Assembly (NCBI GenBank): GCA_030652315.1
Contig: JAUSAX010000122.1
Span: 2,520 to 66,519 of the forward strand
DNA: 64,000 bases
Direction of reading: 5' to 3'
Source: Afipia sp.
GTDB taxonomy: Bacteria > Pseudomonadota > Alphaproteobacteria > Rhizobiales > Xanthobacteraceae
Of the stretch, positions 15,858-32,725 are shown in pieces. Each line of letters opens with the position of its first letter. Positions within the stretch are counted from its first letter, which is position 1. A model generated the notes under the pieces. The model did not search any database. It was not told where the DNA came from and worked only from the letters and a program-made list of their open reading frames with translations. A program made the position numbers and the translations under genes.

Positions 15858-15899
15858 AAGAGCCCCGCTCGATGCTCCGGCATAGAGCGGGGCTCTTTC
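15858..15899. terminator. 13-bp GC-rich hairpin, terminator-like
   Basis: AAGAGCCCCGCTC / GAGCGGGGCTCTT with a short T tail. Confidence 0.6.
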
Positions 15900-15909
15900 G
15901 GAGATGACC

Positions 15910-16143: not shown

Positions 16144-16155
16144 TCTCGTGAAGGC

Positions 16156-16973: not shown

Positions 16974-17007
16974 TGTGCTCGAGCCGCGCCCGCGGCTGAA
17001 CGAATCC

Positions 17008-17091
17008 GGAGAGGTGGCTGAGTGGCTTAAGGCACCGCGTGCGGTACACGGGCAACCGTGTCGGAGGTTCGAATCCTTCCCCTCTCCGCCA
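17008..17091 (+). pseudogene. tRNA-Ser-derived gene lacking the 7-nt anticodon loop
   Basis: GGAGAGG/CCTCTCC acceptor, D arm, ACACGG-GCAA-CCGTGT variable arm, GGAGG-TTCGAAT-CCTTC, G73 and CCA. The anticodon arm is only CCGCGTGCGG (10 nt vs 17), and there is one extra C at the T/acceptor junction. Confidence 0.85.
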
Positions 17092-17132
17092 TCACCAAGC
17101 ACCTGAAACGCCGCGCTCGTTTTTCCGAAACA

Positions 17133-17411
17133 TCAGCGCCGGGAACGTGTGCCTCTCGTCGCGCCCGGCTCGATCGAGTCCGGATATACGCTGCGGTTTT
17201 GCGCAAGTCTCCAATTCGGCGCGCACGTCCCGTTCAGGCCGCCGGTGCTCGCCTGGCACTGCGCCATCGACGTGTAGTCACATTGCTCGATAGAGCCGCC
17301 CCACCCCTGAACGTAGGTCATGCAATAGGGATAGTCGGTGGCCTGCGCCGGAGCCTGACCCAAAAGGAACAGCCCAGCGAGTGCCAGCAAGATGCGGTGC
17401 GGATAGGTCAT
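17133..17411 (-). CDS. DUF3551-type small secreted protein
   Basis: Signal peptide; YPYC...CDYTSMAQCQAS..G..GTC..N pattern. Confidence 0.8.
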   Translation of the reverse strand: MTYPHRILLALAGLFLLGQAPAQATDYPYCMTYVQGWGGSIEQCDYTSMAQCQASTGGLNGTCAPNWRLAQNRSVYPDSIEPGATRGTRSRR

Positions 17412-17771
17412 TCGATCCTCGATTCTTGTTTGGGCGGCATGAGACACCAAGGCGCTTCCTCGCTCAAGACGATAGCCAGTCCCCGCGATCACAGTTCAGC
17501 GAACCGGAAGCCTGATTTCGCATAACTTCCAGATCCCCTGCGCCGCGCGAAAGCCACCCCGATCCGCTTGATATGCCGGGTCCCTGCTGACAGCCCAATG
17601 GAAAACGCCGGGGAAAACACCGGGAAAACGCCATGGCATCGTCATGGAACGCCGTCGCCCTCTGTTTTGTTCTTTGCGGATTGATACCGGTGCCGGGTAC
17701 ACTGCTCGCGTGGTGCTTCCGGCCTGAAACCGGCGGACCATGGTTCTGCCCTGCCAAAGTCAGGAGAAGCC

Positions 17772-17930
17772 GTGAGTGATCCGGAGCAAGACAATCGCAA
17801 ACGCAACCTGAAAATCGCCGAGAACGAGGCGACACGCGAACTCAAAAGCGACGTCCGCCTGACAACCTGGGCGATCGGTGTCGCGGTCGTCATCGGGTTG
17901 ATCGTTCTTGCGCTCTTTCTGAAGCGATGA
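17772..17930 (+). CDS. 52-aa single-pass membrane protein, not in ORF track
   Basis: AGGAGA SD and GTG start; charged N-terminus, then TWAIGVAVVIGLIVLALFL followed by KR. Confidence 0.6.
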   Translation: MSDPEQDNRKRNLKIAENEATRELKSDVRLTTWAIGVAVVIGLIVLALFLKR

Positions 17931-17994
17931 AGTCAGGCACGCCCGCACCCGCGCCTTCGCGCGATGCGAGCGGCGGCCTGAACCAATCCCGAGG

Positions 17995-18492
17995 CTATTT
18001 ATCGAAGGTCATGTCCACGCATTTCATGACATCCGGCCCGACGCCGACGCTGAGGATGATGCATCCCTTCGCGCTGAGCTTGGAGCGGTCGCTGACCCAG
18101 ATCGCGGACCCGCCGGAGCCGAAGAATGCATTCGTGTTCGGCGGCTCGGTTTCGGTCGCGTCGAATGCGTAGTCCGAATCTCCGGGAAATATACGGGCCT
18201 TCAATTTGCAGGAACCGTCGGTATCGACCTTGAGCACTTCCTTGTTGTCGCGGGTCACGCCGACGGTTACCTGGCATCGATAGAATTCGGATGTCCGTGA
18301 GTTGAAAATGTAAGCGAAGGACTTACAGTTGATGTTCTGGAGCTTGCCCGCGGTGAGGCCGCGACCGCAGGCTATCCGCTGGTTGCTGCTCAGCTTGATT
18401 TCGTCGGCCGCGCGGGCGTCCGTGACGCTGGAAAACGTAGTGAGAGCGAGAGCCGGCAAAAGTCCAAAAAAGAATCCGCGAAACTTCTTCAT
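17995..18492 (-). CDS. secreted hypothetical protein with 6 Cys
   Basis: Signal peptide ending ARA; no recognisable domain. Confidence 0.7.
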   Translation of the reverse strand: MKKFRGFFFGLLPALALTTFSSVTDARAADEIKLSSNQRIACGRGLTAGKLQNINCKSFAYIFNSRTSEFYRCQVTVGVTRDNKEVLKVDTDGSCKLKARIFPGDSDYAFDATETEPPNTNAFFGSGGSAIWVSDRSKLSAKGCIILSVGVGPDVMKCVDMTFDK

Positions 18493-18605
18493 CGATTATC
18501 CCCTATTGCGCATGCCGCATCGCGGCGAAATCATGCCGGGCACCGCACGTCCGGCCCCGACTCTAATGCAGTTTGTACAGATAGGCTATCGGCCAGCCGG
18601 TTTCC

Positions 18606-19508
18606 TCAGTGCGCAAGGGCCTGCGCTCTCAAATGCTCCACGGCGCTCAGCAGGCGGCTTTGGCCCTGCTCGCCGATGGCCGCCTCACGCGCTTCCTGGA
18701 TGGCGTCACCGAGCTTCGGAAGCGGGAGGTCCCCGTCGCATGTCGGTTTGACCAGGCGGTCGACAATCACGTTCCACTGCGCAAGACCGCTCTCGTAGGC
18801 GTCGCCGTGCCCCTTGATGAGGTTGGCGGTACGTACGATCGCAATGGTTGCATCGGGCTGTTTCACGAGGCTGCGGTCGACCATATGAAGCCACCGCTCA
18901 ACCCACACGCGCTCCAGCTTGAATCGCTCGGAAAACGGTCGCGTGATCCGCAGGGCAGCAAGCCATCTCAGCTTGCGAAGTGAAAACCGGCTCGCAGAAC
19001 TGAACCGTAGCTTGACCGACCGGTGTGTCAGCCGCGCCAGCCGCAGCCGCTGGAAAATATCCAGTGCGGGGCTCACTACCGCGGATGGAAGCATCCGGAT
19101 CACCTCATCCCAGTGAAACCGCTCCACCCAGTCGGTCGACGATGCGTTGGGCTCGGCATTCACACCGCCGGCGTCGGCCAGCTTGAGCTGCGCCACGCGG
19201 ATCGGATCCTCGAAGTGCATCCGGTCCGACAGGAGTTGCGCCAGTTCGGCAAGATTGGGCACGGTAACCCCGACCGGCCCGATATAACGGCCGATCCGGT
19301 CGAGATAGGCCAGCGCGTAATCGGGATCCTGGTAGTCGATCAGCGATTGAACGGCTTCGCTCACGATGGGAACGACGTCGGGCGGCAGGCGCGCCGACAG
19401 CCGCGCCAGCGCCGCGCGCGCCACTCGCGGATCGCGGGTCTCCTCACCGAAATAGCGTTCCTTGAGCAGCCGGAACGGTGACGGCGGGACTTTGACTCGT
19501 ATTTTCAT
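18606..19508 (-). CDS. stand-alone DUF6537 / indolepyruvate oxidoreductase C-terminal-like helical protein
   Basis: LIDYQDPDYALAYLDR, M.FED.IRVAQLK and L.KGHGD segments; ATGA overlap with the upstream gene. Confidence 0.7.
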   Translation of the reverse strand: MKIRVKVPPSPFRLLKERYFGEETRDPRVARAALARLSARLPPDVVPIVSEAVQSLIDYQDPDYALAYLDRIGRYIGPVGVTVPNLAELAQLLSDRMHFEDPIRVAQLKLADAGGVNAEPNASSTDWVERFHWDEVIRMLPSAVVSPALDIFQRLRLARLTHRSVKLRFSSASRFSLRKLRWLAALRITRPFSERFKLERVWVERWLHMVDRSLVKQPDATIAIVRTANLIKGHGDAYESGLAQWNVIVDRLVKPTCDGDLPLPKLGDAIQEAREAAIGEQGQSRLLSAVEHLRAQALAH

Positions 19509-20149
19509 GACGAGGCCTGAGCACTGCTTTGGGCGAGTTGGGCCTCAAGCTTTCCGACATTCTGAAACAGGCGCGCGCTGACCAGCCGCAGGAAATAGAA
19601 TCCGAACTCCGGATTCTGGACGTAAAGCTCCTGCACCTTTGAATAGGTCACGCTGAGCACCAGCCCGCCCTCGAGACATTCAAGGGTCTGGGTCCGCTTG
19701 TTGGATGGCGACAGCATTCCGAGTTCGCCGACAATGGCGCCAACCGGAAGCTCGATACCGGATTCGACCAGCCGGTAACGGCCGCTGACGATGTAGAACA
19801 TCTCCTCGGCCTGTTCGTGCTTGTAGAACAGCACTTCGCCAGTCGCACACTTTCGCTCTGTCATGAACGGCTTCAGCCACGCCATCGACAGATCGCTGCT
19901 GACCGAGCGCTTGACCTCGCGAACCAGCAGCAGCATTTCCCGCAGCCGGTAGATATTGAGCGGCAGCAGGATCATGTGCAGCACCATCACGGGGTAGTGG
20001 TGGTTACCGATAGAAAACGCGATGAACACGACGTTGGTGAGAATGCCGAAGATGCGGAGCGGGATCATCGTTCGCATCGTGTAGCCCGCGACCACGAACG
20101 CGGACGCGATAAACCCGCCGGCTCCAGAAACGAGACCTGTCATATCCAT
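19505..20149 (-). CDS. membrane-anchored cyclic-nucleotide-binding protein without HTH
   Basis: About 3 N-terminal TM helices (IPLR...LPLNIYRL); CNBD with GELGM...RT phosphate-binding cassette. Confidence 0.85.
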   Translation of the reverse strand: MDMTGLVSGAGGFIASAFVVAGYTMRTMIPLRIFGILTNVVFIAFSIGNHHYPVMVLHMILLPLNIYRLREMLLLVREVKRSVSSDLSMAWLKPFMTERKCATGEVLFYKHEQAEEMFYIVSGRYRLVESGIELPVGAIVGELGMLSPSNKRTQTLECLEGGLVLSVTYSKVQELYVQNPEFGFYFLRLVSARLFQNVGKLEAQLAQSSAQASS

Positions 20150-20311
20150 GGGAATCGACCTGATGCTGAAGGATGTTTGACGCGTATTATGCCGTTCCGC
20201 GCCTTGCGGAACAACGGTTGTCACCTCTGACGCCGTTATTCAGGCGTCAATCTCGATATGACGCCCACCATGACCGGCGGATGATACCGGCAGCGCAGTG
20301 CACTGCGTTGC

Positions 20312-21142
20312 TCAAAGTTCGATGGACAGACCTTCGCTGGCGACGATGGTCCCTGCCCGCGCCTTTGCGGCGGCCGCAGCTATGCGATCCATCTCGTCGT
20401 CGTCATGCTCGGGGTCGTGATGAAACAGGCAGAGCGTCCCGGCGCCCGCCTCATCGGCAAGCTGGACCGCCTGTTGCCAGCTCGAATGCCCCCAGCCGAC
20501 GTGTTCCGGCAATTCCTCGTCCGTGTATGTCGTGTCGATGACGACAAGCGCCGCGTCCTTTGCGAGAGCGAGCAAGGCCGGATCGATCGAGCTCCCGCTC
20601 AGCTCGGTGTCGGTGATGTAGGCAAAGACACGGCCGCCGAACTCCACACGGTAGCCGGTCGCGCCGCCGGGATGATTGAGCGCCGCAGTTTGGACCTTGA
20701 TCCCGGGCCGCGGAGAGAGCGTCTCGCCGGGTACAAAATCGGTAAACTCGATGGCGCCCTGCGCGGTTCCGATCTCGATCGGAAACAGCGGATAGCTCAT
20801 CAGCTTCCGCACCGTTTCCTTGATCCCGCCGGCGGGCTGCAGATTTCCCGCCCACAACCGGAGCCGGCTGCCGCTATCGAAGACCGGCGTAAAAAACGGA
20901 AGGCCAATAATGTGATCGATGTGCGAGTGGCTCAAAAACAAATCGAGGTCCGTCCGCGCGGCCTCTTCGCTCAGCGCGTTGCCGAGCAGACGAAGCCCCG
21001 ATCCGGCATCGAATACAAGGCGATGGTCGCCGCACTTTACCTCAACGCATGACGTATTGCCGCCGTAGCGCACGGTGTTGGGGCCTGGACACGGAATGCT
21101 CCCACGAACACCCCAGAACCGCACAGACATTGTGGTCGACAT
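20312..21142 (-). CDS. metallo-beta-lactamase fold hydrolase, candidate cyclic-nucleotide phosphodiesterase
   Basis: RFWGVRGSIP, YGGNTSC, HSHIDH, HPGG, TDTE, GH and HHDP motifs. Confidence 0.85.
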   Translation of the reverse strand: MSTTMSVRFWGVRGSIPCPGPNTVRYGGNTSCVEVKCGDHRLVFDAGSGLRLLGNALSEEAARTDLDLFLSHSHIDHIIGLPFFTPVFDSGSRLRLWAGNLQPAGGIKETVRKLMSYPLFPIEIGTAQGAIEFTDFVPGETLSPRPGIKVQTAALNHPGGATGYRVEFGGRVFAYITDTELSGSSIDPALLALAKDAALVVIDTTYTDEELPEHVGWGHSSWQQAVQLADEAGAGTLCLFHHDPEHDDDEMDRIAAAAAKARAGTIVASEGLSIEL

Positions 21143-21277
21143 GAAAAAACTCAATGAATCTTTCGCGAGAATTGCACGCGGCGGTCATACTCACCAGCAT
21201 GATACCGTGCAGCGGTCATCAAAAAAATGGCTTGCCAGACGGTCATGTGGACGGTAGCGGCGGCCTTTCGCCTCATT

Positions 21278-23530
21278 CTATTTGGTTGTCAGGGCAACGA
21301 CACCGTTCCAGTCGTCCGGCGGCGGAGTTTTGCGGAATGTTTCGATCCGCTCGGAATAGAGGTCATAGAGCACGCTGAAGCTCCGCGCTTCGTCGGCAGT
21401 GCGGCCCTTCGCGATTGCAGCGAGAGCGCCGTCCCAATCGCGGCTGCGGTAGTGGCCCAGCATCTCGATGTTGAGGTTGCGCAGGCGCTGAAACGGCCCC
21501 GATTTGGCAACATCTTCCCGCCCGACGATCGCATAAATCACCTCGGGCTCCTTCTTGCCCTTCACGGTGATGAAATCGATTTCGAGGATCGCGAACTTGT
21601 CCTTTGCCGCCAGCGCCGTCGCCGATCCCGCGATGATCGGCACCCCGTAGGACTTCGACTGCCCCTCAAGCCGCGAGGCCAGGTTCACGCTGTCACCCAG
21701 CACCGAATAGTCGAATCGCAGGTTGGACCCCATGTTACCGACCACGCAGGTCCCGGTATTCAGACCGATGCCGACACGCATCGGAATGAACGGCTTGCCA
21801 GCCTCATTTGCCTCGCGCTCACGTTCAACATTCAGCGCCTCGATGCGGTCGATCATGTCGAGCGCTGCATTGCACGCGTTGATCTGATGTTGCTGATCGC
21901 TCAACGGCGCGTTCCAGAACGCCCTGGTGGCGTCGCCCATGTACTTGTCGATAGTGCCCTTGCGATCGAGGATCGCATTGGTGAGCGGTGTCAGGAACCG
22001 GTTCATCAGCGATGTCAGGCCTTGCGGATCCCGCTTGAACTGCTCTGAGATGGCAGTGAAGCCGCGCACGTCGCTGAACATGATGGTCATGTCCCGCTCC
22101 TCGCCGCCGAGCACGAGCTTCTCCGGCGACTGCGCCAGCTGTTCAACCAGCGCCGGCGACAGGTACTGTCCGAAGGCCGAACGGATACGGCGGCGCTGCG
22201 CCTGTTCGCGAAAGTAGCTGCTGAACACCAGCACCAGATAGATCGCGGTGCTCGCGATCAGCGGAAACGTGAAATCGATCAGCAGCCGGTGCTCTGCGAA
22301 GAAGTACCAGGACGTCGCCACCATGATGCTGACAATGACGGCGCCGAACACCAGCAGCGAGATGGCGCTGAGGATCGGCGCGAGCCAGATAATCGCGATT
22401 CCGAACAGGATCGCGGCCAGCACCTCCGCGCCGATCGCATAGTTCGGCTGCGACAGCACCGAGCGGGTCAGCGCGCTCTCCAGCACCTGCGCGTGAACCT
22501 CGACGCCCGGCATCACCGGATCAAGCGGTGTGGTCTTCACGTCCAGCAATCCGACAGCCGAGGTGCCGATCAGGATCAACTTGCGCGAAATCTGATCGGG
22601 ACCGACCACACCGTCCAGCACATCGGCTGCCGATACATAACGCGCCGCATCGTGTTTCGCGAAATGCACCCAAAGCTGGCCGTTGCGATCGGTGGGGACT
22701 TCAAATCCGGGCACCGCCACGCTCTTCACGCCAGCCTCGTCCGACTTGATGAGGATGGTGTCGGACTTGGTGACGATACGCAGCATCTCGAACGTCAGCG
22801 AGGGCATCAATTCGCCCTGCGCCAGCATGACCATCGGGACGCGGCGGACGATACCGTCGCGCTCGGTGCGGATCGTGAACAGGCCGCGCCCGGGAGCGGC
22901 CTCCTCAAGCACCGGAATATTCCGCAGCAGCCCCGGGAATTGCAGCAGGAACGGCCGTGGGTCGCCGCCCAGCGTCGCAAGTCCCGTGAGGGGTAACTTC
23001 AGCTCAGGCTGCGGCACAAACCTCGGCAGGCCGGATTCGCCGAGGACCGCAGGTGATTTCCGCAGCACGTCGGCGAGCACCTGATCGTTGCTGGGCAGCG
23101 CCCGCAACTTCGTCCGGCTCTCCTCATCAAGATCGCGAAACGCGTCCGCAGCCACCCCCGGCGAAAGCCGGTCCTGCTCCGCGAAGACGATATCGAAGGC
23201 AATTGCGGCGGCGCCGAGATCGGTCAGCCGCTGAACAAGGTCGGCGACGCGCGTGCGCGGCCACGGCCATTGCCCGAACTTGGCGAGGCTTTTCTCGTCG
23301 ATGTCGATAATGACGACGGGGCGCTGCGTGGTCTCGCGCGGCTTGAGGATTTGATATCCATCGAAGGTGCGGACACGCAACTCTTCGAGCGGGATCGGAT
23401 CGGCAATGCGAACACCGAGCATCGCGATCAGAAGCAAAAGACACAACAGCCGCGCGTAGCCGAACAGCTTCGCATAACGCCTGATACGCGCGAGAAAACG
23501 CACCGCCGATTTCATTACCGCCCGCACCAT
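21278..23530 (-). CDS. CHASE2-domain class III adenylate cyclase
   Basis: Periplasmic CHASE2 (IDIDEKSL...GQWPWPR), 3 TM helices, then FSDVRGFT, IDKYMGD and FDYSVLGDSVNLASRLE (adenine-specifying K/D; catalytic D, D, N, R). Confidence 0.92.
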   Translation of the reverse strand: MVRAVMKSAVRFLARIRRYAKLFGYARLLCLLLLIAMLGVRIADPIPLEELRVRTFDGYQILKPRETTQRPVVIIDIDEKSLAKFGQWPWPRTRVADLVQRLTDLGAAAIAFDIVFAEQDRLSPGVAADAFRDLDEESRTKLRALPSNDQVLADVLRKSPAVLGESGLPRFVPQPELKLPLTGLATLGGDPRPFLLQFPGLLRNIPVLEEAAPGRGLFTIRTERDGIVRRVPMVMLAQGELMPSLTFEMLRIVTKSDTILIKSDEAGVKSVAVPGFEVPTDRNGQLWVHFAKHDAARYVSAADVLDGVVGPDQISRKLILIGTSAVGLLDVKTTPLDPVMPGVEVHAQVLESALTRSVLSQPNYAIGAEVLAAILFGIAIIWLAPILSAISLLVFGAVIVSIMVATSWYFFAEHRLLIDFTFPLIASTAIYLVLVFSSYFREQAQRRRIRSAFGQYLSPALVEQLAQSPEKLVLGGEERDMTIMFSDVRGFTAISEQFKRDPQGLTSLMNRFLTPLTNAILDRKGTIDKYMGDATRAFWNAPLSDQQHQINACNAALDMIDRIEALNVEREREANEAGKPFIPMRVGIGLNTGTCVVGNMGSNLRFDYSVLGDSVNLASRLEGQSKSYGVPIIAGSATALAAKDKFAILEIDFITVKGKKEPEVIYAIVGREDVAKSGPFQRLRNLNIEMLGHYRSRDWDGALAAIAKGRTADEARSFSVLYDLYSERIETFRKTPPPDDWNGVVALTTK

Positions 23531-23548
23531 GCCGCTAGCCGATACCCG

Positions 23549-24946
23549 TCATTTTTCCCGGAATGCACGCATGAGCTGGTCGCTGAACGGCTTCGCGAGA
23601 TAGGATATCATGGTGCGCTCGCCCGTCTGCACAAAAGCCTCGACCGGCATGCCGGGCATCAGCCTGACATCCCCGAGCCGCGCCACTTCTGCCGGCGGCA
23701 GCGAGACGCGGACGGTGTAATAGCTCTGGCCAGTGCGCTGGTCGATCGTAGTGTCCGGCGAAATCCGGCTGATGGTGCCGTTCAGTTCCGGCGTGGTGCG
23801 CTGATTGAAGGCTGACAGCCGGAGCAGCGTCTTCTGGCCGATCCGCAACTGATCGATGTCCTGCGGATTGACCTTGGCCTCGACGGACAGATTGTCGGAG
23901 TCCGGCACGATCAGCATGACCGCATCGCCGGCGGTGATGACACCGCCGACGGTGTGGACCGTCGACTGAAGCACCATGCCGTCCTGCGGGGCGCGAATAT
24001 CGATGCGGCGCAGCTGATCCTCGGCCGTCACCTTGCGTTCGACGAACTCGCCGATCTTGTCGTTGATCTCGCGCATCTCCTTGGAGACCTCGCTGGAGAG
24101 ATCCTTGTCGATCTGGATGATCTGTAGTTCGATCTCCGTGATTTTGCCCTTGGCCTGCGCCTTCTGGGCGACGAATTGCGCACGGTCGCCGTCGAGCCGT
24201 GCTGCGTCCCGCTCAAGAACGGTCAGCCGTGAAATCTGCACAAGGTTCTTGGCGAACAGATCGCGGACGCCAACAAGCTCCTTCTGGATGAGTTCAATCT
24301 CGCGCGACTTGGCGTTCTCCTGCGCCTCAAGGCCGCCGATCTCCTCCTTGAGCTGGGCGATACGCTCCTTGAGCTGGGCCTTCTGGTTGACCCGACCGGA
24401 TGAGCGCACCTGAAACAGCTTGACCTCGTTGCCGATCAGCGACCGAACATCCGGATTGGCGAACGATTCCATCAGCTCTGGCGGAAAAGTAATGCGTTCT
24501 GCGCCATCCTGCTCCGCCAGCAATCGTGCCCGGCGCGCCCACAATCCGTCCAGGCCTTTGGTGACAATGGCAAGACTTGCCTTGGTCACCGTGTCGTCGA
24601 GGCGAACCACGACGTCACCGGCCTTGACGCGGTCGCCGTCGCGCGCCCTCACCTCGCCGACGACACCGCCTGTCGGGTGCTGCACTTTCTTGACGTTGGA
24701 ATCGACCACGATGGAGCCGGGCGCGATCAGCGCGCCGGATATCTGCGCGGTCGAGGCCCAGCCGCCGATGCCGCATGTCAGCAGCGTGACGACGACAAGT
24801 CCCACGATCAAATGAAAACGGATGGACCTGCGCGATCCCGGCTGATCGAGGCTCTTGAAGATCGAGAGGCGTTCGAGCGGTGAAAACAAGGCGGTGAAGA
24901 TGCGGCGCACAATGTTTTCTGTTCTGGCGAGGGGCGGCTTGCTCAT
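23549..24946 (-). CDS. HlyD-family type I secretion membrane fusion protein (PrtE/PrsE-like)
   Basis: VQHPTGG, IRAPQDG and PGMPVEAF..TGERT motifs; long coiled coil. Confidence 0.93.
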   Translation of the reverse strand: MSKPPLARTENIVRRIFTALFSPLERLSIFKSLDQPGSRRSIRFHLIVGLVVVTLLTCGIGGWASTAQISGALIAPGSIVVDSNVKKVQHPTGGVVGEVRARDGDRVKAGDVVVRLDDTVTKASLAIVTKGLDGLWARRARLLAEQDGAERITFPPELMESFANPDVRSLIGNEVKLFQVRSSGRVNQKAQLKERIAQLKEEIGGLEAQENAKSREIELIQKELVGVRDLFAKNLVQISRLTVLERDAARLDGDRAQFVAQKAQAKGKITEIELQIIQIDKDLSSEVSKEMREINDKIGEFVERKVTAEDQLRRIDIRAPQDGMVLQSTVHTVGGVITAGDAVMLIVPDSDNLSVEAKVNPQDIDQLRIGQKTLLRLSAFNQRTTPELNGTISRISPDTTIDQRTGQSYYTVRVSLPPAEVARLGDVRLMPGMPVEAFVQTGERTMISYLAKPFSDQLMRAFREK

Positions 24947-26709
24947 GGTTGGCCTCCTCCTCCCTTGTCCGACACGATCTTGATGGCGGGCGGGGCCGCG
25001 ACAGGGCGCTGCAGCACCTGGCCGAGGACAGCCTCCTTTGGTCCGAATGCCTGAACCCGCCCGTCCTTCAAGACCAGAACGAGATCGACGCTCTCGATGC
25101 CGATCGGGCGATGGGCGACCACGACAACAACGCCGCCCCGCGCGCGGACCGCAAGGATGGCCTTGTTCAGCGCCACATCGCCTTCGCTGTCGAGGTTGGA
25201 ATTCGGCTCATCCAGCACCACGAGAAACGGATTGCCGTAGAGCGCCCGCGCCAGCGCGATCCGCTGGGCCTGTCCGGCCGACAGCACGCTGCCCTGATCG
25301 CCGATCTGGGTATCATAGCCGTCCTTCATGCCGATGATCAGGTCGTGGACGCGGGCTTCCCGGGCAGCCGCAATAATATTATCCGGCGACGCATCGTCCT
25401 CGAAGCGCGAAATGTTCTGGGCGATGGTGCCGGCGAACAGCTCCACGTCCTGCGGCAGGTAGCCGATATGGCGGCCGAGGATTTCCGGCGACCATTGGTC
25501 GAGCGCTGCGCCGTCGAGCCGCACCTTGCCGCGGAGCGGCTGCCAGACGCCGACCAGCGCCCGCACCAGCGAGGATTTGCCCGATCCGCTGGGACCGATG
25601 ATGCCGACGCCCTGCCCCGCCTCAAGTGCGAACGTGATGTCCTGCCCCACCACCTTCTGTTCGCCCGGGGGGGCGATGGTGAGCGCCTCGACGGAGACCT
25701 TGTTGGCCGGGGTTTCAAGCAGGGTCGGAGCGCTTTGTTCCGGCAGCATGCCCAGCAGCCGGTTGAGCCGGTGCCAGCTTTGCCGGGCGGCCACGAAACC
25801 CTTCCAGTGTGCAATCGCGAGATCGACCGGCGCCAGCGCCCGGGCGCTGAGGATCGACCCGGCAATGATGATGCCCGCGGTCGCCTGCTGGTTGATGACC
25901 AGATAGGCGCCGACGCCGAGCACGGCGGATTGCAGCATCATGCGCATCACCTTGGCGATGGCGCCGAGCCCGCCCGCGACGTCGCTGGCCCGCTGGTTGC
26001 TCGCGAGGTAGTCGCGGTTGGACTCCTCCCATTGCCTGCCGACACGGCCCGCCATGCCCATCGCGGCCAGCACCTCGGCATTGCGGCGGCTCGCCAGCGC
26101 AAGGTCCTGCCGGCGCATCGCCAGGCCCGTGGAGCGCTTCATGGGGTCGTTGGTCAGGTATTCGGTCAGGATGGTCAGCGCGATCAGGAGAATGGCGCCG
26201 ACCAGCGCGGTCACGCCGATCAGGGGATGGAAGGCGAAACAGATCGCGAGATAGAGCGGCAGCCACGGCAGATCGAACAGCGCGCCCGGCCCCATGCCCG
26301 AGAGGAACGACCGGACGTTGTCGAGATCGCGCAGCGGCTGAAGGCCCTCGCTGCGGTTACCCACGAGCAGCGGCATCCGCACGACGATGTCATAGACGCG
26401 ACGGCTGAGCATTTCGTCCAGCGTCGATCCGATCCGGATCAGGATACGGCCGCGGATCAGATCGAGGATGCCCTGAACGACGTAGAGACCGCCCGCCAGC
26501 ACGATCAGGCCAACAAGCGTCGGAATGCTGCGGCTCGGCAGCACCCGGTCATAGACCTCGAGCATGAAGAAGGAGCCGGTCAGGTAGAGAATGTTGATGA
26601 CAAAGCTCATCACGCCGACGCCGATGAACGCGCTGCGGCAGGCGCGAAGCGCCACGCCCAGTTCGGAACGGGGCGAATGAGCCTGACCTGATGTCTTAGC
26701 GGACTGCAT
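24943..26709 (-). CDS. type I secretion ABC permease/ATPase (PrtD/PrsD-like)
   Basis: YDRVLPS, GPSGSGKS, LSAGQAQR and LDEPNSNLD motifs. Confidence 0.94.
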   Translation of the reverse strand: MQSAKTSGQAHSPRSELGVALRACRSAFIGVGVMSFVINILYLTGSFFMLEVYDRVLPSRSIPTLVGLIVLAGGLYVVQGILDLIRGRILIRIGSTLDEMLSRRVYDIVVRMPLLVGNRSEGLQPLRDLDNVRSFLSGMGPGALFDLPWLPLYLAICFAFHPLIGVTALVGAILLIALTILTEYLTNDPMKRSTGLAMRRQDLALASRRNAEVLAAMGMAGRVGRQWEESNRDYLASNQRASDVAGGLGAIAKVMRMMLQSAVLGVGAYLVINQQATAGIIIAGSILSARALAPVDLAIAHWKGFVAARQSWHRLNRLLGMLPEQSAPTLLETPANKVSVEALTIAPPGEQKVVGQDITFALEAGQGVGIIGPSGSGKSSLVRALVGVWQPLRGKVRLDGAALDQWSPEILGRHIGYLPQDVELFAGTIAQNISRFEDDASPDNIIAAAREARVHDLIIGMKDGYDTQIGDQGSVLSAGQAQRIALARALYGNPFLVVLDEPNSNLDSEGDVALNKAILAVRARGGVVVVVAHRPIGIESVDLVLVLKDGRVQAFGPKEAVLGQVLQRPVAAPPAIKIVSDKGGGGQP

Positions 26710-26853
26710 CGATACCTGGCTTGCCGGCTGCTGTCAGAACGCCAATCTGCGGTTCTTGAATCGTGCGCGGCGACCGGTCCATCATGCCATGACACGGGTG
26801 GGGATTGCAGCCGGAAACATGATCGAAGTTAACGTTTCCGCCCCTCCCACGCA

Positions 26854-29800
26854 TCAGGCGTGGAGGATGAAATCGCTCGCATTCAGCGCTGTAACACCCT
26901 TCAGGAGCAAGGTGTCCGTGGTGCCGTTGAGATGGAGCAGCGTATTGCCGCCGGTATGATCGGCCTGGGCCAACAGGGCCGTCAGCGCCGAAGCATCAAT
27001 GGATGAGATTGCCTGGAAGTCGATCTTGTCGGTGCCATGCGTGAAGTTCAGGACCGTGTCCTGACCGGAATGCGCAGTGAACACAAACTGGTCCATCCCG
27101 GAGCCGCCAATCAAAACATCCTTTTGATTGGCATTTTCAGCCAGGACCAACGGACTTGATCCGCTTTGCCGGAAAACAAAGTTGACGACGTCGAACGCGC
27201 CCTGATTGTCCGTCACAGTCAGCGTGCCATGGCCGATCGGCGAGTTATCCGTGGGCGTATAGACCATGTCGTTTTGAAGCGCAGAGTTGATCGCTGAAAT
27301 ACTACCCGTTGAGATGTGCGGCGCGATCGACCCGTGATCGGCGGTCGTTGTAAGCGTGAACTGGCCGCTTCCACCGTCGTCCACATCCGACACGGACAGT
27401 CCTGAAACCTTTGTCGCGCCAGATCCTTGCGGCGTCAGGGTGATGTTGGCCGTCGATATGACTGGCGCGTCATTGGTGCCATTGATGGTGATCGTTTCGG
27501 TCTGATTGACCGTCGCGCCCTGCGCATCGGTCACGTCGTAGGACACCTTGATCGTGGTATGCTGGCCGACCGCAAGATGATTGAACGTAGCGTTCGTGGG
27601 ATCGATAGTCAGCGTGTGACCGTCGGCACCCAGCGAGAGCCCTGCCGGTATCGTTGACGAGGTGGCCCCGCTGTCGACCTTGTAGGTGACGTCGGTGACG
27701 TGAAGCGTCGCGGTCTCGCCGTCATCGAGGTCGGATGCACCGAGCAGCAGGTTCTTCGTGAATGCCGCCGCGCCTTCGCTCGCGGTGTCGGTCAACGCGG
27801 CAGCAACAGTCGGGGTATCGTTCGTGCCGTTGATCGTGATGGTCTCGGTCTGGTGAACAGTGAGACCTAGAGCGTCCTTGACGTCGTAGGACACCTCAAT
27901 CGTGGTATGTGCGCCGACAGCAAGATGATTGAACGACGGATCGGCGGGATTCACGCTCAGTGTGTTGCCAGACAACGAAATGCCCGCGGGGGCCGTACCC
28001 GAGGCTATCCCGGCACCGACCTTGTAGCTGACGTTTGCGACGGACAGCATATCGCCCTGATCGGCGTCCGTAGCGTTCAACAGCAGATTATTGGTGAAGG
28101 CTGGGCCGCCTTCGCTCGCCGTATCGGATAGCGCCGCGGATACGGTCGGCGTGTCGTTCGCGCCGGTAATGTTCACTGTAAACGTGGCCGTGCCGCTCGC
28201 GCCATGGGCGTCGGTCGTTTGTACCGTGAAGGTGTCCGTATAGTTGCCGGCGTTCAGCGCGTTGATCGCAGCCGCGTTCGGGACGTAGCTGTACGTGCCG
28301 TCACTGTTGACGGTCAGCGAGCCGTAACTGCCAGCTACAGCCACCGCGCTCACATAGGTCGCGCCGTTCAATACGGCGTATGTCAGCCCGCTCGTCTCGC
28401 CGTGATCGACATCGTTGCCAACGAGCGCGCCGTTCAGGGTGGCGAAGGTATCGGCCGCAGCCGTATCGACAAGCGTTGGCGTAGTAACCGATGCAAGTGT
28501 CGGCGCATCGTTGGTACCGGTGATCGTGATGTCGAAGGTCGCGGGCGTGGTGCCGCCGTCGCCATCGCTAACGGTGACCGTGTAGGTCAGCGTGATGGTT
28601 TCGCCGTAAGCCAGATAATCGAACGCCGTCGAGGGAGCGGAAAATCCGAGATCCACCGATCCATTCGCCGCGCCAGCAGCCTTGGCCGTTGTGATCGGCG
28701 TCACGAGTGCGATCAGCTGCGCCGGTGTCAGCGAAAGTCCCGTCGTCACGCCTGCCGTGGTCACGGCGGTAATCAACGCGGTGTGGCCCACATCGCTGAG
28801 ATCGACATCGCCAAACGTCACATGGATCGGCGACGCCAGCGTGAGTGCGTTGGTGTCCGTCTGTTCATTCAACGACGTGGCGGCAATCGCATCGATGACA
28901 GGCGCGTCATTCGTGCCGGTGATCGTGACGTCGAAGGTCGCGGGCGCGGTGCCGCCGTCGCCATCGCTGACGGTGACCGTGTAGGTCAGCTTGATGGTCT
29001 CCCCGGACGCCAGATAGTTGAAGGCCGTCGAGGGAGCGGAAAATCCGAGATCGACTGAACCGGTCGAAGAGCCGGCCGCCTTGGCCGTCGCAATCGGCGT
29101 CACCAGCGCGATCAGCTGCGCCGGTGTCAGCGAAAGTCCCGTCGTCACGCCTGTCGTGGTCACGGCGGTGATCAACGCGGTGTGGCCCACATCGCTGAGA
29201 TCGACATCGCCGAACGTCACATGGATCGGCGACGCCAGCGTGAGTGCACTGGTGTCAGTCTGTTCATTCAACGACGTGGCGGCAATCGCATCGATAACGG
29301 GCGCGTCGTTGGTGCCTGTGATCGTGATCGTCACCGTCTGAGTGACGAGGGCACCGTGCTCGTCGGTGATCGTGACGGTGTAGACCTGAGTAATGGTCTG
29401 ACCTTCGGCCAGCGACTGCAGGGTTGGATCGTTGTCGTCCAACGTGAAGTGCCAGCCGACAGTTCCGGTATTGATGGTATCCGCTTCGTTCTCCACCACC
29501 GGACCGATAGTGAAAGTACCGATGTGCGCGTTCGGTCCAAAGCCAGGCAAGCTGGGGTTGGAGGTCGGGTTCAGGGTCGAGCCCGAGGTCGATGATGTGA
29601 ACACGACTCCGGCCTGATGGCCGTCGGACAGATCGACGTCCCGGAACGTGATCGTTCCATTCTTTACAATCGCATGGTCAGCGGTGACGAGCGTGTCTTC
29701 TTTGACTGCGCCGACGATGTCCGACAGTGAAAGAACGATCGTCGGCGCGCCATTGTCGTTCGGCACATCGTTGTCGCCCGTGATCGTGATCGGAATGATC

Positions 29801-31299
29801 ACGTTGGCAACGTCCGGCCCCGACCGCGACGTGACCTGAATCATGAAGGTCACACTCTCGCCATCGCCCAGGAAATTGAAACCCAGCCGATCGAACGTGA
29901 TGACGCCTGTATTCTGGTCGATGTGCAGGAATTGCGAGAGAAAACCCGCGCTGAGATTCGGGTTGGTGCTGACGGCGCTCTTGATGATCGCGCTGCCTGC
30001 CACGAACGGAGTCGCGGTGTCGTAGAACGGCGCATTGCCGATGTCGGGATCGTCGATATGAACGAGATCCGAGATCTTGAAAGATTCAACCGTCGAAACG
30101 AACGTCTGCTCTGACAGGATCGACGATGCCGAGAACTGCGCCTTGGTGTTGTAGAAAATCCTGTTCTGGTAGGTCGTGATCCCGGTCAGCGGATCGGTCA
30201 CGGCAAAACGCAATTCGATCTGCGTCAGAAATGTTTGCTTATTGCCGGAGTTGGTCGTGAACAGAATTTCGGCGAGGTTGTTGCCGCTGGTGTTCGATCC
30301 GAACTTGGGCAGCTTCGGATTGGAATCGTCCGGATTGTAGTTCGGAAAATAGAGCTGGAAGACCTGCTGGATGATGGCCTTCTCGGCCTGCTGGTCGGCA
30401 AGCGTCTTGAGCTGCTCGATCGCGGTCGGAGGCTGACCGATGCCGAGGCTCGACACGAAGGTCACCTGCCCGGCCTGTGACACGGTGCCGATCAATTGGC
30501 CGGTGACCTTGTCATAGAGATTGTAGGAGCCGGTGTGCCCGTCCGGCTCGACGAGGACCGAGAATTTTGTAGGGCCGTCGTTCGCGCCAATCTCGACCAG
30601 CACTGCCGTGCCGCGAATGCCCATCGTGGCAACCGGTGTTTCGACGCGCATGTTGCCGTTCTTGGCGGTCTGGCCGGCGACGAAGGTGACGGTGCCCTGA
30701 ACAAGGCTCATCAGCGACGAATTCGACGATCCGTTCGGATCGAAGATCATCTCGTTGAGAACCATGCGTGCGTTCGAGGTCATGCCGAACGCGCTGCCGT
30801 CAACGAAGGTCATGCCGATCGAGGAATTCGATCCGGTCTGGACCACATCGCCCTTCTGCACGGCGGCGCCGATCTGCAGTTCAACGGAGACGCCGTTCCG
30901 GATCACGGATGCGCTGCCGGACATCTTCAAGACGGTACCGATCACCGCGCCTGCAGCAGGTGCTGCTGTTGCCTGAGCGTAGTGAACGTGTCCGGTCAAT
31001 GCATCGACGATATGACCGCCGAGCGTCGCGCCGTCTTTCGTCGACAGGGCGGGTCGCGTTTCACCCTTGAAGTAATTGCCGACGACGAATTTCTGGTTGT
31101 TGCCTGAAATGATCAGGTCGCTGCCGATCCGGGTATAGTCGCCGGAAAACAGCAGATGTGCATCAGGAACGACAACATGGCTGTCGGATGCGTGGTGCTG
31201 GACGAAGCCTGGCTTTGAATCGAATGCAAAGCGCTCGCCACCCAGTGATACCGGGGAGTCGTGCGAAAATTCGGAATCAAATGGTCCGGCGAAATTCAA
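26854..31299 (-). CDS. 1481-aa type I-secreted VCBS/cadherin-like repeat protein with an N-terminal FecR-like domain (candidate adhesin)
   Basis: FecR/retention-module-like segment (VIGTV...GDVVQTG...TPVATMGIRGT); repeated T.TITG.ND.P units; C-terminal GGSGMD...QFVF...DKIDF...ASDFI secretion signal; no signal peptide. Confidence 0.88.
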   Translation of the reverse strand: MNFAGPFDSEFSHDSPVSLGGERFAFDSKPGFVQHHASDSHVVVPDAHLLFSGDYTRIGSDLIISGNNQKFVVGNYFKGETRPALSTKDGATLGGHIVDALTGHVHYAQATAAPAAGAVIGTVLKMSGSASVIRNGVSVELQIGAAVQKGDVVQTGSNSSIGMTFVDGSAFGMTSNARMVLNEMIFDPNGSSNSSLMSLVQGTVTFVAGQTAKNGNMRVETPVATMGIRGTAVLVEIGANDGPTKFSVLVEPDGHTGSYNLYDKVTGQLIGTVSQAGQVTFVSSLGIGQPPTAIEQLKTLADQQAEKAIIQQVFQLYFPNYNPDDSNPKLPKFGSNTSGNNLAEILFTTNSGNKQTFLTQIELRFAVTDPLTGITTYQNRIFYNTKAQFSASSILSEQTFVSTVESFKISDLVHIDDPDIGNAPFYDTATPFVAGSAIIKSAVSTNPNLSAGFLSQFLHIDQNTGVITFDRLGFNFLGDGESVTFMIQVTSRSGPDVANVIIPITITGDNDVPNDNGAPTIVLSLSDIVGAVKEDTLVTADHAIVKNGTITFRDVDLSDGHQAGVVFTSSTSGSTLNPTSNPSLPGFGPNAHIGTFTIGPVVENEADTINTGTVGWHFTLDDNDPTLQSLAEGQTITQVYTVTITDEHGALVTQTVTITITGTNDAPVIDAIAATSLNEQTDTSALTLASPIHVTFGDVDLSDVGHTALITAVTTTGVTTGLSLTPAQLIALVTPIATAKAAGSSTGSVDLGFSAPSTAFNYLASGETIKLTYTVTVSDGDGGTAPATFDVTITGTNDAPVIDAIAATSLNEQTDTNALTLASPIHVTFGDVDLSDVGHTALITAVTTAGVTTGLSLTPAQLIALVTPITTAKAAGAANGSVDLGFSAPSTAFDYLAYGETITLTYTVTVSDGDGGTTPATFDITITGTNDAPTLASVTTPTLVDTAAADTFATLNGALVGNDVDHGETSGLTYAVLNGATYVSAVAVAGSYGSLTVNSDGTYSYVPNAAAINALNAGNYTDTFTVQTTDAHGASGTATFTVNITGANDTPTVSAALSDTASEGGPAFTNNLLLNATDADQGDMLSVANVSYKVGAGIASGTAPAGISLSGNTLSVNPADPSFNHLAVGAHTTIEVSYDVKDALGLTVHQTETITINGTNDTPTVAAALTDTASEGAAAFTKNLLLGASDLDDGETATLHVTDVTYKVDSGATSSTIPAGLSLGADGHTLTIDPTNATFNHLAVGQHTTIKVSYDVTDAQGATVNQTETITINGTNDAPVISTANITLTPQGSGATKVSGLSVSDVDDGGSGQFTLTTTADHGSIAPHISTGSISAINSALQNDMVYTPTDNSPIGHGTLTVTDNQGAFDVVNFVFRQSGSSPLVLAENANQKDVLIGGSGMDQFVFTAHSGQDTVLNFTHGTDKIDFQAISSIDASALTALLAQADHTGGNTLLHLNGTTDTLLLKGVTALNASDFILHA
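28528..29325 (-). repeat. two near-identical 399-bp (133-aa) tandem intragenic repeats
   Basis: TITGTND anchors at 29311, 28912 and 28513, an exact 399-bp period. Confidence 0.9.
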
Positions 31300-31867
31300 A
31301 CCCTGCCCGCCCGTATCAAAAATTTTATTGTTAAGAAATTGAGAATTCGCAATTCATAGCATCAAAGGCCGCAACCCCATAGAGGATTGAACTAAACGGC
31401 TTGGTTTTACATGCCTCCGTTAAGTACAATGACGGGATCATGACGTGGTCGTTCAGGCGTTACTTTCTAAGTCTATGAAATAGAACTGATATTCTATGCT
31501 GTCCCGCACCATCAAACTCAATTAACAGGGCATATTCAAGCCTAGAGACCAAACGGCCGGCTGAAGAATGATTTGCCGAAACTCAATCTATACTTCAAAT
31601 CTCGCGCGATAAACTCAAGCATCTAATCAGCCGCACACCCAATTACCTTGGATATGCGATGTTTAGCATCCGGAGGCTTGCGCGTTAGCCCTATCTACAA
31701 TTTTAGACAATGTCGTCAACATTAGTTCCGCATATTTGAATCCAGTTGGCGGATTTGTCCCGCGTTTAAGCCGCCGAAAAGGGGACCCGCCCTACTCCTT
31801 GTGACGAAATGATCTGGCCACGAGCACGCATACCTTTGCGGGCCGATGTCCGGACAAGGGGCGTCAC

Positions 31868-32725
31868 ATGTCGGCTTTCAGTGCAGCGCGCGCGGGCGCG
31901 ATAGCGTTTATCTGTATTTTCAGCATGTTGGGCGCCCCCGCGCATGCGGCAGCGTATGCCTTGCGCGAGAGTCCGATCGGTGCCGAGGCAGCCCCCGCAC
32001 CCGCCCCTGCAGAGCCTTTCGGGCTTTCGACCTCCGCCCTGACCGAAGGCCCCCTTCGCGCCAAATGGCTGGCAGTCGAGCGCGCCATAGCGGCCGAGGC
32101 GGATGTCATCGCCGGCTGTACCAGCGATCCCGGACATTGCACCTCCCAGCCAGCGCATCGATTCCTCGAAATCGTCAACGCCGCCGCTGGCCGCGAGGGG
32201 CTCGCGCGTCTGGGCGAAATCAACCGCGCGATCAATCTCGCCATCCGGCCGGTCAGTGACCGCGCGCAGTACGGTGTGGAGGACCACTGGTCCTCACCGC
32301 TGGCCACTCTGGCGGCGGGAGCCGGCGACTGCGAGGACTACGCAATCGCAAAGCTGGTTGCGCTGCGCGCTGCCGGCGTCGCGGCGGAGGACCTCCGCCT
32401 CGTTATCATTCGCGAGAACGCGACCGGCGATGACCATGCCGTGGTCGCGGCGCGGTCCGGCGGTCATTGGCGCGTGCTGGACAACCGCACGTTCCTGATG
32501 ATCGAGGACAACGGATTCGGCAAATACCGGCCGCTGTTTGCAATCGACGCGGACGGCGCAAAACGCTTTGAACAGCCGATGTATGCGAATGCTGCACCGA
32601 TCACGCAGTCCCGCCCCGCCGAGATCGAGACGCGCAATCCCGTCGTCGATGTCGGCGCAACGGCGGTCGGATCGAACACGGCGACTGTAGCGTTCGACGA
32701 GTTCTGTATGACGCTTGCACTGTAA
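31868..32725 (+). CDS. transglutaminase-like cysteine protease (BTLCP, LapG-like)
   Basis: Signal peptide; GDCEDYAIAK (Cys), DHAV (His) and VLDN (Asp) triad. Confidence 0.9.
   Translation: MSAFSAARAGAIAFICIFSMLGAPAHAAAYALRESPIGAEAAPAPAPAEPFGLSTSALTEGPLRAKWLAVERAIAAEADVIAGCTSDPGHCTSQPAHRFLEIVNAAAGREGLARLGEINRAINLAIRPVSDRAQYGVEDHWSSPLATLAAGAGDCEDYAIAKLVALRAAGVAAEDLRLVIIRENATGDDHAVVAARSGGHWRVLDNRTFLMIEDNGFGKYRPLFAIDADGAKRFEQPMYANAAPITQSRPAEIETRNPVVDVGATAVGSNTATVAFDEFCMTLAL

Follow-up and report, generated by a model that had tools for sequence, protein, structure and literature searches.

What does a CHASE2 receptor cyclase read when its gene stands behind that of a giant secreted adhesin? The question is raised by a 64-kb stretch of DNA (here called the window) from an Afipia-like Nitrobacteraceae genome of a groundwater metagenome, in which one gene cluster (18606-32725) brings together a giant adhesin, its type I secretion system (T1SS), a BTLCP cysteine protease, a CHASE2 adenylate cyclase and genes predicted to handle cyclic AMP (cAMP); the input of CHASE2 has been described as unknown (PMC5192318). 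The best reading of the locus, held tentatively and at a little less than an even chance, is that the adhesin is retained by its T1SS, that its periplasmic FecR-type head talks to CHASE2, giving outside-in cAMP signalling, and that the BTLCP processes the head. The genes and domains on which this turns are as follows (TM, transmembrane; MFP, membrane fusion protein; pLDDT, predicted local distance difference test).

31868-32725, plus strand: cysteine protease of the BTLCP type (Peptidase_C93), periplasmic, with a signal peptide (AHA/AA near residue 27); its gene diverges from that of the adhesin
31300-31867, strandless: BTLCP-adhesin intergenic region, 568 bp, AT-richer (GC 0.55), with conserved blocks among Afipia-clade loci (8-locus alignment)
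26854-31299, minus strand: giant adhesin and T1SS substrate, 1481 aa, with VCBS/cadherin-like repeats and a conserved N-terminal head
30988-31197, minus strand: adhesin N-domain, residues 35-104 (DAHLLFSGDYxRxGxDL...DYFKGE...ALTGH), with a short terminal helix and no family match
30949-30987, minus strand: Ala-rich disordered linker of the adhesin, residues 105-117 (YAQA-TAAPAAG), pLDDT <50, the candidate BTLCP cleavage region
30430-30948, minus strand: FecR-type beta-rich domain of the adhesin, residues 118-290 (Pfam FecR), the proposed CHASE2 partner
24943-26709, minus strand: PrtD-type ABC permease/ATPase of the T1SS (TIGR01842, 734 bits, cut-off 510)
23549-24946, minus strand: HlyD-family T1SS periplasmic adaptor (MFP; TIGR01843, 380 bits, above cut-off)
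21278-23530, minus strand: receptor adenylate cyclase with a TM segment, a periplasmic CHASE2 domain, about three TM helices and a class III cyclase domain
22400-23434, minus strand: CHASE2 domain of the cyclase, residues 33-377 (E 7e-57)
21542-22093, minus strand: class III cyclase domain, residues 480-663 (Guanylate_cyc PF00211, E 3e-20)

An initial annotation of the window had named eight genes with their coordinates and gaps, and was borne out by open reading frame (ORF) calls and domain searches. All eight predicted ORFs were present in the cluster and their domain assignments were confirmed with Pfam and NCBIfam; the adhesin and ABC genes are 144 bp apart and the MFP and cyclase genes 18 bp, and the ABC and MFP genes overlap by 4 bp, as do the genes for a cyclic-nucleotide-binding domain (CNBD) protein and a DUF6537 protein further downstream. 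The ORF set comprised 41 ORFs across the window, called by length and codon-position GC; a motif scan was run on all 41 and Pfam on 38, with ORF-free stretches (room for short genes only) left unscanned. Among these ORFs, as the annotation had claimed, no GGDEF, EAL, LapD or TolC was found, and no Crp-like gene either; a TPR gene was likewise not found in the window. Two further claims held: the divergent periplasmic BTLCP has its Cys-His-Asp triad (C155/H190/D205) as well as its signal peptide, and the catalytic residues of the cyclase are intact. The cyclase domain aligns over its length with Pseudomonas aeruginosa CyaB 3r5g (E 4e-29) and with 6fht (E 2e-31), with D487, K529, D533, N616 and R620 (the metal Asp pair, the substrate Lys and the Asn/Arg) conserved, and the protein is on these residues a predicted class III adenylate cyclase.

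Export of the adhesin points to a T1SS substrate with a conserved N-terminus. It has no Sec signal peptide, and the dedicated ABC and MFP genes that mark Lap systems lie directly downstream of it. The ABC protein lacks a C39-like N-domain, the LssB and HlyB models scoring below cut-off and aligning only from profile position ~140. Pfam and NCBIfam matches of the adhesin comprise FecR (residues 151-249, E 1.9e-9), Cadherin_4, Big_9 and VCBS_repeat (163 bits). Its C-terminal tail reads ...LKGV...DFILHA, and the relatives have L.GV....L..SDF(I/H) in common. The tandem GGxGxD nonapeptide repeats that precede the C-terminal signal of RTX adhesins are absent, since the only such motif is GGSGMD at residue 1398 and HemolysinCabind gave no match. 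In the 8-locus alignment the TTG/GTG start codon was conserved, with a GGGCGGGCAGGG-like Shine-Dalgarno region. Within the gene, a tandem repeat at 28502-29332 (399 bp, 2.1 copies, 90% identity) corresponds to a 133-aa VCBS-type repeat, which is in keeping with relatives that differ in length and with assemblies in which the gene call is broken. Assignment to the Bradyrhizobium DDxP proteins, which have been described with LapD-like genes, was considered and rejected, as the adhesins have no DDxP repeats.

The conserved part is the head, the first ~330 residues, whose identity among relatives ranged from 45 to 93% as against unalignable, very diverse bodies of 600-4971 aa; a conserved head on diverse bodies is the pattern expected if the head serves conserved machinery. 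A head search of the representative library returned 998 clusters (50% identity) at E<=1e-30, and nearly all of the top 150 matches were proteins of 600-4971 aa matched at residues 1-330. An alignment of 48 heads resolved three elements: an N-domain (~35-104), a variable Ala-rich linker and a FecR-type domain (~118-290) followed by a helix. The N-domain was highly conserved in the 48 loci and was the most confident part of the AlphaFold2 (AF2) model (pLDDT 64-90). Residues ~118-190, the first ~70 of the FecR-type domain, resemble the periplasmic plug (RIN or retention module) of LapA/MpIBP adhesins. A profile of the head matched 5ix9 in the PDB at E 2.7e-5, and in Foldseek with the low-confidence head model 5ix9 was the sole significant match (E 4.9e-4, probability 1.0, TM 0.79, root-mean-square deviation 1.2 A, 66 columns); as the model was only partly confident, AF2 fold matches beyond 5ix9 were set aside. 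The protein in 5ix9 is RIN, a periplasmic domain at the N-terminus of MpIBP, the RTX adhesin of Marinomonas; RIN is conserved in LapA-like adhesins and too big to go through TolC (PMC5550230). The anatomy is that of a putative T1SS substrate held by a folded N-terminal head, and the composition of this head appears to be new.

The FecR-type domain also ties the adhesin to the cyclase. The head was searched by tblastn against 72,556 plasmid/chromid records (PLSDB), and all seven matches to the FecR region (7/7) lay within ~1.3 kb of a CHASE2 gene, in the following arrangements.

Ruegeria, two records: FecR gene followed by a CHASE2 cyclase
Paraburkholderia: FecR-OmpA-CHASE2
Caballeronia, two records: CHASE2 gene after the match
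Shinella sp. H4-D48 plasmid (L087): 850-aa FecR protein, then a CHASE2 cyclase, then NHLP HlyD and ABC genes
Ensifer sp. PDNC004 plasmid NZ_CP070354 (L085): MBL gene (metallo-beta-lactamase fold) overlapping a CHASE2 cyclase gene, divergent from TPR-FecR-NHLP HlyD-ABC-ABC-CNBD

Judged by these relatives, the FecR domain of the adhesin belongs to a CHASE2-associated subtype. Similar neighbourhoods have been reported: the Burkholderia BiofilmReg operon has a LysM-FecR protein beside a CHASE2 kinase (PMC5192318), the Sinorhizobium meliloti FecR protein SMc02177 adjoins cyaD1 in the gene order cyaD1-smc02177-smc02178 (PMC5498481), and a Campylobacterota cluster joins a CHASE2-cyclase and a cAMP phosphodiesterase (PDE) to an outer-membrane FecR protein and TPR (PMC9239204). 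A signal-peptide-like N-terminus was seen in three of the four translated stand-alone FecR partners (Ensifer, Paraburkholderia and Shinella; the annotated Ruegeria protein had none), and the lack of a signal peptide in the adhesin is consistent with entry into the periplasm through T1SS stalling. In the Ensifer and Shinella loci CHASE2 cyclase and FecR lie within NHLP/Nif11 exporter clusters, which hints at a wider coupling of this cAMP module to ABC/HlyD export.

On the cyclase side, the CHASE2 domain is set between hydrophobic segments (residues 19-49 and 362-440) and followed by a cytoplasmic output domain, with a FecR domain of the matching subtype encoded next to it, which is the make-up of the FecR-CHASE2 modules reported elsewhere. 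S. meliloti CyaD1 without CHASE2 gives constitutive cAMP (PMC5498481), and because of this CHASE2 may be regarded as a gate that a periplasmic partner could operate. The cyclase of the window is 94% identical to its Afipia birgiae counterpart and has at least 574 relatives in a collection of species-representative genomes.

Conservation of the linkage was followed in 80 genome loci around cyclase orthologs (67-94% identity), onto which the window proteins were mapped with a flank of 10 kb; 68 loci with at least 3 kb upstream of the cyclase were informative, and individual loci are cited by number. By gene order, the cluster falls into two overlapping modules with the cyclase in common. Module A, with a BTLCP gene divergent from a FecR-headed giant adhesin gene, then the T1SS genes (where linked) and the CHASE2 cyclase, occurs in Afipia, Tardiphaga, Rhodopseudomonas and Bradyrhizobium. 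A homologous adhesin lay upstream of and co-directional with the cyclase in 46/68 loci; in a further seven another giant co-directional ORF was found, with a body too long or too different for a head to come within the 10-kb flank, and two more had a divergent FecR-headed giant gene. Upstream of the cyclase, the ABC/MFP genes were found in 25 loci; another 11 loci had them downstream, and in 32 they were out of range. Because they are so often downstream or out of range, the adhesin-cyclase linkage is independent of T1SS linkage. A BTLCP homolog stood divergently upstream in 29 of the 35 loci with an adhesin start in range, and look-ups centred on the adhesin (Bradyrhizobium LM2.7 and USDA 4369) gave the same order of BTLCP, divergent FecR head and body, and CHASE2 cyclase.

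Module B, which consists of the cyclase, MBL, TM-CNBD and DUF6537 genes and a gene for a secreted 165-aa protein, was confined to the Afipia clade; the MBL gene was found in 15/68 informative loci and the 165-aa gene in 16. Module B was kept in L015 and L016, where the whole SDR-BTLCP-adhesin-T1SS block was missing and the cyclase adjoined the RraA-like and carboxyltransferase genes found on the far side of the BTLCP in the window. The survey of co-retention that the initial annotation had proposed therefore divides its claim: adhesin, BTLCP and cyclase are kept together across four genera, whereas MBL, CNBD and DUF6537 keep this company only in the Afipia clade. Likewise, its view that cAMP synthesis, breakdown and reception are packaged with adhesin export is true of the window but reflects a lineage-specific juxtaposition of two modules. 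Of the two alternatives it had offered, a tethered adhesin that signals to CHASE2 is favoured by the adhesin-cyclase adjacency in four genera and by the FecR subtype.

The preferred reading, a retained adhesin that talks to CHASE2, would work as follows. The adhesin would be exported C-terminus first through the PrtD-type ABC/HlyD T1SS, with TolC encoded elsewhere, until the folded N-terminal head (N-domain, Ala-rich linker and FecR/RIN-like domain, ~290 residues) is stopped, as the heads of LapA and MpIBP are, at the outer-membrane channel. The FecR-type domain, then in the periplasm, would contact the CHASE2 domain of the neighbouring receptor cyclase, and the presence, load or proteolytic state of the adhesin would set cAMP synthesis. 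The BTLCP would process the head, most likely in the exposed linker, and thereby release the adhesin or convert the signal. In the Afipia clade the cyclase also travels with a putative local cAMP-handling set, composed of the candidate MBL phosphodiesterase, a membrane CNBD protein coupled to DUF6537 and a small secreted protein. A stricter form, in which the retained head is the physiological ligand or partner of CHASE2 and the adhesin serves as an antenna whose occupancy, tension or clipping by BTLCP gates the cyclase, is possible but doubtful.

Protease and linker deserve separate attention. The BTLCP scored 69 bits on PF06035 and 65 bits on the LapG equivalog of NCBIfam (cut-off 320), with LapG 4u65 as its best PDB match (E 1.7e-11), and is classed by the curated threshold as a BTLCP rather than a LapG ortholog. 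In LapG substrates the order is retention module, targeting helix, DP motif and [T/A/P]AAG (PMC13090378). The PAAG at adhesin residues 114-117 fits this LapG consensus (PMC13090378); the di-Ala follows the short N-domain helix, no DP motif is present, and residues 185-340 hold no AA. The YAQA upstream of the di-Ala is nearly invariant among relatives. A conserved di-alanine LapG site was tried as a feature of the family and rejected on its frequency in the 48 heads, given below. The intergenic region (31300-31867) is presumably a promoter/regulatory region; a GTGAC-N11-GTCAC inverted repeat lies in it near the BTLCP start, and neither a Clr/CRP-type palindrome nor another known regulator motif was recognised there.

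Several observations weigh against an adhesin head that signals to CHASE2. The sole di-Ala of the head (TAAP and PAAG, residues 111-117) precedes the plug-like domain, unlike in LapA, and was present in only 29/48 relatives, with the strict motif in 8/48; a cut there would take off the N-domain, with no obvious way for the adhesin to come free, and might convert the signal instead of releasing the protein. The BTLCP cleavage site is the weakest point of the proposal. The LapA retention model NF033682 matched residues 120-189 at 20 bits (E 5e-4), below its cut-off of 50, the AF2 model was poor overall (mean pLDDT 57), and the FecR match in Pfam might just reflect homology of the retention module to FecR-like folds. 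A literature demonstration of physical contact between FecR and CHASE2 was not found for any system. Finally, the cyclase occurs without any adhesin in L015, L016 and probably L012, and in some Bradyrhizobium metagenome-assembled genomes (L053, 8938-9765; L059, 8970-9773) BTLCP and cyclase are immediate divergent neighbours that no adhesin separates; the cyclase must therefore have some role for which this adhesin is not required. The arrangement in L053 and L059 is either a secondary adhesin deletion or a hint of a BTLCP-cyclase relationship.

The genes of the downstream block, and the membrane receptors found at the same place in other lineages, were as follows (cNMP, cyclic nucleoside monophosphate).

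20312-21154, minus strand: MBL-fold hydrolase, candidate cyclic-nucleotide phosphodiesterase (Lactamase_B_2, E 5e-21; HxHxDH = HSHIDH at residue 76)
19505-20224, minus strand: small TM-CNBD protein with 2-3 N-terminal TM helices and a cytoplasmic cNMP-binding domain (PF00027, E 6e-9)
18606-19508, minus strand: stand-alone DUF6537 protein (PF20169, E 8e-33), its gene overlapping the CNBD gene by the 4 bp given above
17995-18492, minus strand: secreted Cys-containing protein of 165 aa with a signal peptide and no Pfam match
L095, 7387-8523: cNMP-gated K+-channel-like gene adjoining the BTLCP gene
L012, 9841-10884, and L032, 8338-9390: cNMP-gated K+-channel-like gene between the MBL and TM-CNBD genes
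L014, 5663-6691: cNMP-gated K+-channel-like gene after the MBL gene

The MBL protein matched NF041851, a model for cyclic nucleotide-degrading phosphodiesterase, along the full length but weakly (49 bits, cut-off 400), scored about equally on RNase Z models and had weak PDB matches (RNase Z, 6kns). It is a candidate PDE mainly by its conserved adjacency to the cyclase, a pairing that recurs on the Ensifer plasmid with 44% (cyclase) and 47% (MBL) identity and overlapping genes; PDE genes also accompany CHASE2 cyclases in Campylobacterota (PMC9239204). The TM-CNBD protein probably starts at M26 (nt 20149), since relatives are called at 214 aa. It has an intact phosphate-binding cassette (GEL...RT), hydrophobic segments at residues 28-46 and 52-73, short extramembrane loops only and no periplasmic domain; it matched TIGR03896 (bacteriocin-type transport-associated CNBD) weakly, at 25 bits against a cut-off of 161, and homologs of it have unrelated gene neighbours, in one case a different cyclase. 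The 4-bp overlap suggests translational coupling of CNBD and DUF6537. DUF6537, found elsewhere only as the C-terminal part of IorB-family proteins, gave no functional lead, a Variovorax gene adjoining a CNBD homolog proving unrelated.

The co-directional ninth gene, for the 165-aa protein, belongs to the downstream block, and its product is probably the ninth member beside cyclase, MBL, CNBD and DUF6537: of the 16 loci with this gene, 15 have it straight after DUF6537, the adhesin-less L015 and L016 among them, and the exception is L014, in which CNBD and DUF6537 were both undetected. The channel-like genes of other lineages (Ion_trans and cNMP_binding, with a TSTGYGD filter) suggest that different lineages recruited different membrane cNMP receptors to the cyclase locus. 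That the locus attracts membrane cNMP effectors argues that the cyclase really makes a cyclic nucleotide; it is no argument that these effectors control the protease. Two variants were seen nearby. In L003 (Bradyrhizobium-labelled; 14320-18796) an integrase-bearing island lies between the MBL and TM-CNBD genes and carries a second MBL hydrolase, with a faint anti-Pycsar Apyc1-like match, and a small CNBD protein. In Rhodopseudomonas L018 (12507-13688) a DUF3095 gene (E 8e-145), not an MBL gene, directly follows the cyclase.

Of the other explanations, co-regulation survives best, though we consider it unlikely. Here the cyclase would sense an unrelated cue, its cAMP would act through a Crp/Clr-type regulator encoded elsewhere that switches transcription of adhesin and BTLCP, and the head would be a mere plug. 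The S. meliloti CHASE2 cyclases do act through the transcription factor Clr (PMC5498481), the conserved intergenic blocks could be regulator sites, the FecR region overlaps the plug-like fold, and the cyclase was kept without the adhesin in L015 and L016. The same intergenic region, however, yielded no recognisable Clr/CRP-type palindrome, the called ORFs of the window include no Crp-like gene, and the closest stand-alone FecR proteins are all adjacent to CHASE2 (7/7); the close spacing of adhesin and cyclase genes in different genera, from tens of bp to a few hundred, suggests more than shared regulation.

Improbable as well is an autocrine arrangement, in which a cyclase-FecR pair monitors the output of the adjacent ABC/HlyD exporter, be it released adhesin or a head fragment, and the Ensifer and Shinella loci may do likewise. 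Both plasmids pair CHASE2 cyclase and FecR with NHLP HlyD and ABC(C39) genes (Ensifer PDNC004 also with MBL, TPR and CNBD), and the weak match of the window CNBD to TIGR03896 points the same way; but the Bradyrhizobium exporter genes are usually unlinked to the cyclase, and the FecR domain here belongs to the exported protein itself instead of forming a receptor of its own in the periplasm.

Quite improbable is that the CHASE2 cyclase is itself the analogue of LapD, with CHASE2 binding and sequestering the BTLCP or being cut by it. BTLCP and cyclase co-occur in most loci, and in L053, L059, L045 and L051 the BTLCP gene is directly divergent from the cyclase without an adhesin. These loci look like secondary adhesin deletions, though, and the BTLCP is missing from 6/35 loci that keep adhesin and cyclase; CHASE2-BTLCP binding is without precedent, and a cyclase domain gives output, whereas the degenerate EAL of LapD receives a nucleotide.

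Least likely, and indeed very improbable, is an inside-out switch in which the TM-CNBD protein (with or without DUF6537) reads cAMP and acts LapD-like on the BTLCP and hence on adhesin release, since, although its parts are co-directional and tightly spaced in the window, its CNBD cassette is intact, LapD is absent from the called ORFs and membrane cNMP receptors recur at the locus, the MBL, CNBD and DUF6537 genes are missing from most BTLCP-adhesin-cyclase loci (Tardiphaga, Rhodopseudomonas, Bradyrhizobium) and persist without BTLCP and adhesin in L015 and L016, homologs of the TM-CNBD protein turn up in unrelated surroundings, and the TM-CNBD protein itself offers no LapD-like periplasmic domain that could hold a protease. 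The TM-CNBD protein was rejected as a LapD analogue on this topology and distribution, and the other alternative of the initial annotation, that cAMP replaces c-di-GMP as the attach/detach switch, is weakly supported, with an MBL gene in only 15/68 loci and a CNBD protein lacking a periplasmic domain.

A retained adhesin that signals to CHASE2 would stand between known systems. The likeness to the Lap system (Pseudomonas fluorescens LapA/LapBCE/LapG/LapD) and to MpIBP of Marinomonas primoryensis lies in a giant repeat adhesin with a neighbouring ABC/MFP T1SS, a BTLCP that has the Cys-His-Asp triad and whose gene stands by that of the adhesin, an N-terminal domain apparently similar in sequence and fold to the RIN/retention plug, and an Ala-rich candidate cleavage region with PAAG. 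Unlike Lap, the window has no LapD, its BTLCP reaches 65 bits where LapG requires 320, its ABC protein is PrtD-type without a C39-like domain, its plug-like region forms part of a complete FecR domain and has an additional conserved domain in front of it, and its di-Ala, which is not conserved, stands on the N-terminal side of the plug instead of following it. The linked second-messenger enzyme, too, differs, being an adenylate cyclase with an extracytoplasmic sensor, which favours an outside-in cAMP signal over inside-out control by c-di-GMP. The system is partly Lap-like, as a putatively tethered T1SS adhesin with a BTLCP, and differs from Lap in the defining features of LapD, a conserved TAAG after the plug and a LapG-level score. 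LapD-like genes have been reported in some Bradyrhizobium T1SS clusters with DDxP proteins (PMC7730722), and a LapD may be encoded outside the 64-kb window.

With the FecR-CHASE2 modules (PMC9239204, PMC5498481, PMC5192318) the window has in common the CHASE2 receptor and its adjacent FecR-domain partner, the class III cyclase output and a possible cAMP-degrading hydrolase beside the cyclase. It differs in that the partner is the head of a 1481-aa T1SS substrate without a signal peptide, not a small Sec-exported periplasmic or outer-membrane protein, and in having no TPR gene and an added BTLCP. LapD-less clusters of Rhizobiales (Ensifer canadensis pT173d and a Bosea plasmid) hold the closest plasmid homologs of the window BTLCP (33-37% identity), divergent from a giant VCBS protein and near HlyD/ABC genes; in contrast to the window they carry TolC, a ribbon-helix-helix protein, a small GGDEF protein and no CHASE2 cyclase, and their adhesin N-termini lack a FecR domain. 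LapD-less BTLCPs are known in alphaproteobacteria from Caulobacter HvyA (PMC4241560), which targets the capsule instead of an adhesin. Clusters for NHLP/Nif11 bacteriocin export likewise link an ABC/HlyD exporter to a CNBD protein, in Ensifer PDNC004 also to a homologous CHASE2 cyclase, MBL and FecR, and in Shinella H4-D48 cyclase and FecR stand beside the exporter, with no annotated MBL or CNBD in the stretch read; their exporter is, however, of the C39-peptidase type with small peptides as cargo, and the window CNBD falls short of TIGR03896 (25 bits, cut-off 161). In full-text literature searches on CHASE2 together with FecR, LapG/LapD, T1SS or adhesin, no description of this combination was found. 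The claim of the initial annotation that the combination is undescribed holds for the combination, while its parts are known (PMC9239204, PMC5498481, PMC4241560).

The cluster is flanked by housekeeping genes, among them nitrate assimilation, 5-oxoprolinase subunit and MetRS genes. A stand-alone PilZ-domain ORF of 98 aa (16677-16973, plus strand), ~1.6 kb beyond the cluster and conserved in Afipia relatives, is the sole c-di-GMP-related signature in the window. A second Lactamase_B_2 MBL hydrolase, unrelated to that of the cluster, lies at 3645-4445 (minus strand). A promoter/terminator scan gave 14 terminator-like sites against 11.4 expected, which is not above chance; an Rfam scan of the window gave one match, a tRNA at 13730-13816 (plus strand), with no riboswitch in the long intergenic region. 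An exact-sequence look-up of the cyclase returned no match, and megablast of the locus against plasmids returned nothing but distant T1SS ABC genes. A look-up of RNA-seq runs containing the sequence came back empty.

CHASE2 heads cyclases, kinases and diguanylate cyclases in many phyla, including the rhizobial cyclases that control legume infection, and its FecR neighbours have repeatedly been noticed, with no function for them found in the literature. For what a CHASE2 cyclase reads, the locus gives a concrete, testable model. The system as a whole appears conserved and widespread and is at present wholly inferential; if the model is true, it would represent an outside-in surface-sensing pathway through a T1SS-stalled protein and the first defined input for the CHASE2 family, and the wiring of Lap-like tethered adhesins in alphaproteobacteria would depart from the c-di-GMP/LapD paradigm. 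The family is large, with the cyclase relatives counted above and ~1000 head clusters at 50% identity. As it is common in soil- and plant-associated Bradyrhizobium and relatives, a role in attachment signalling, if true, would be ecologically relevant.

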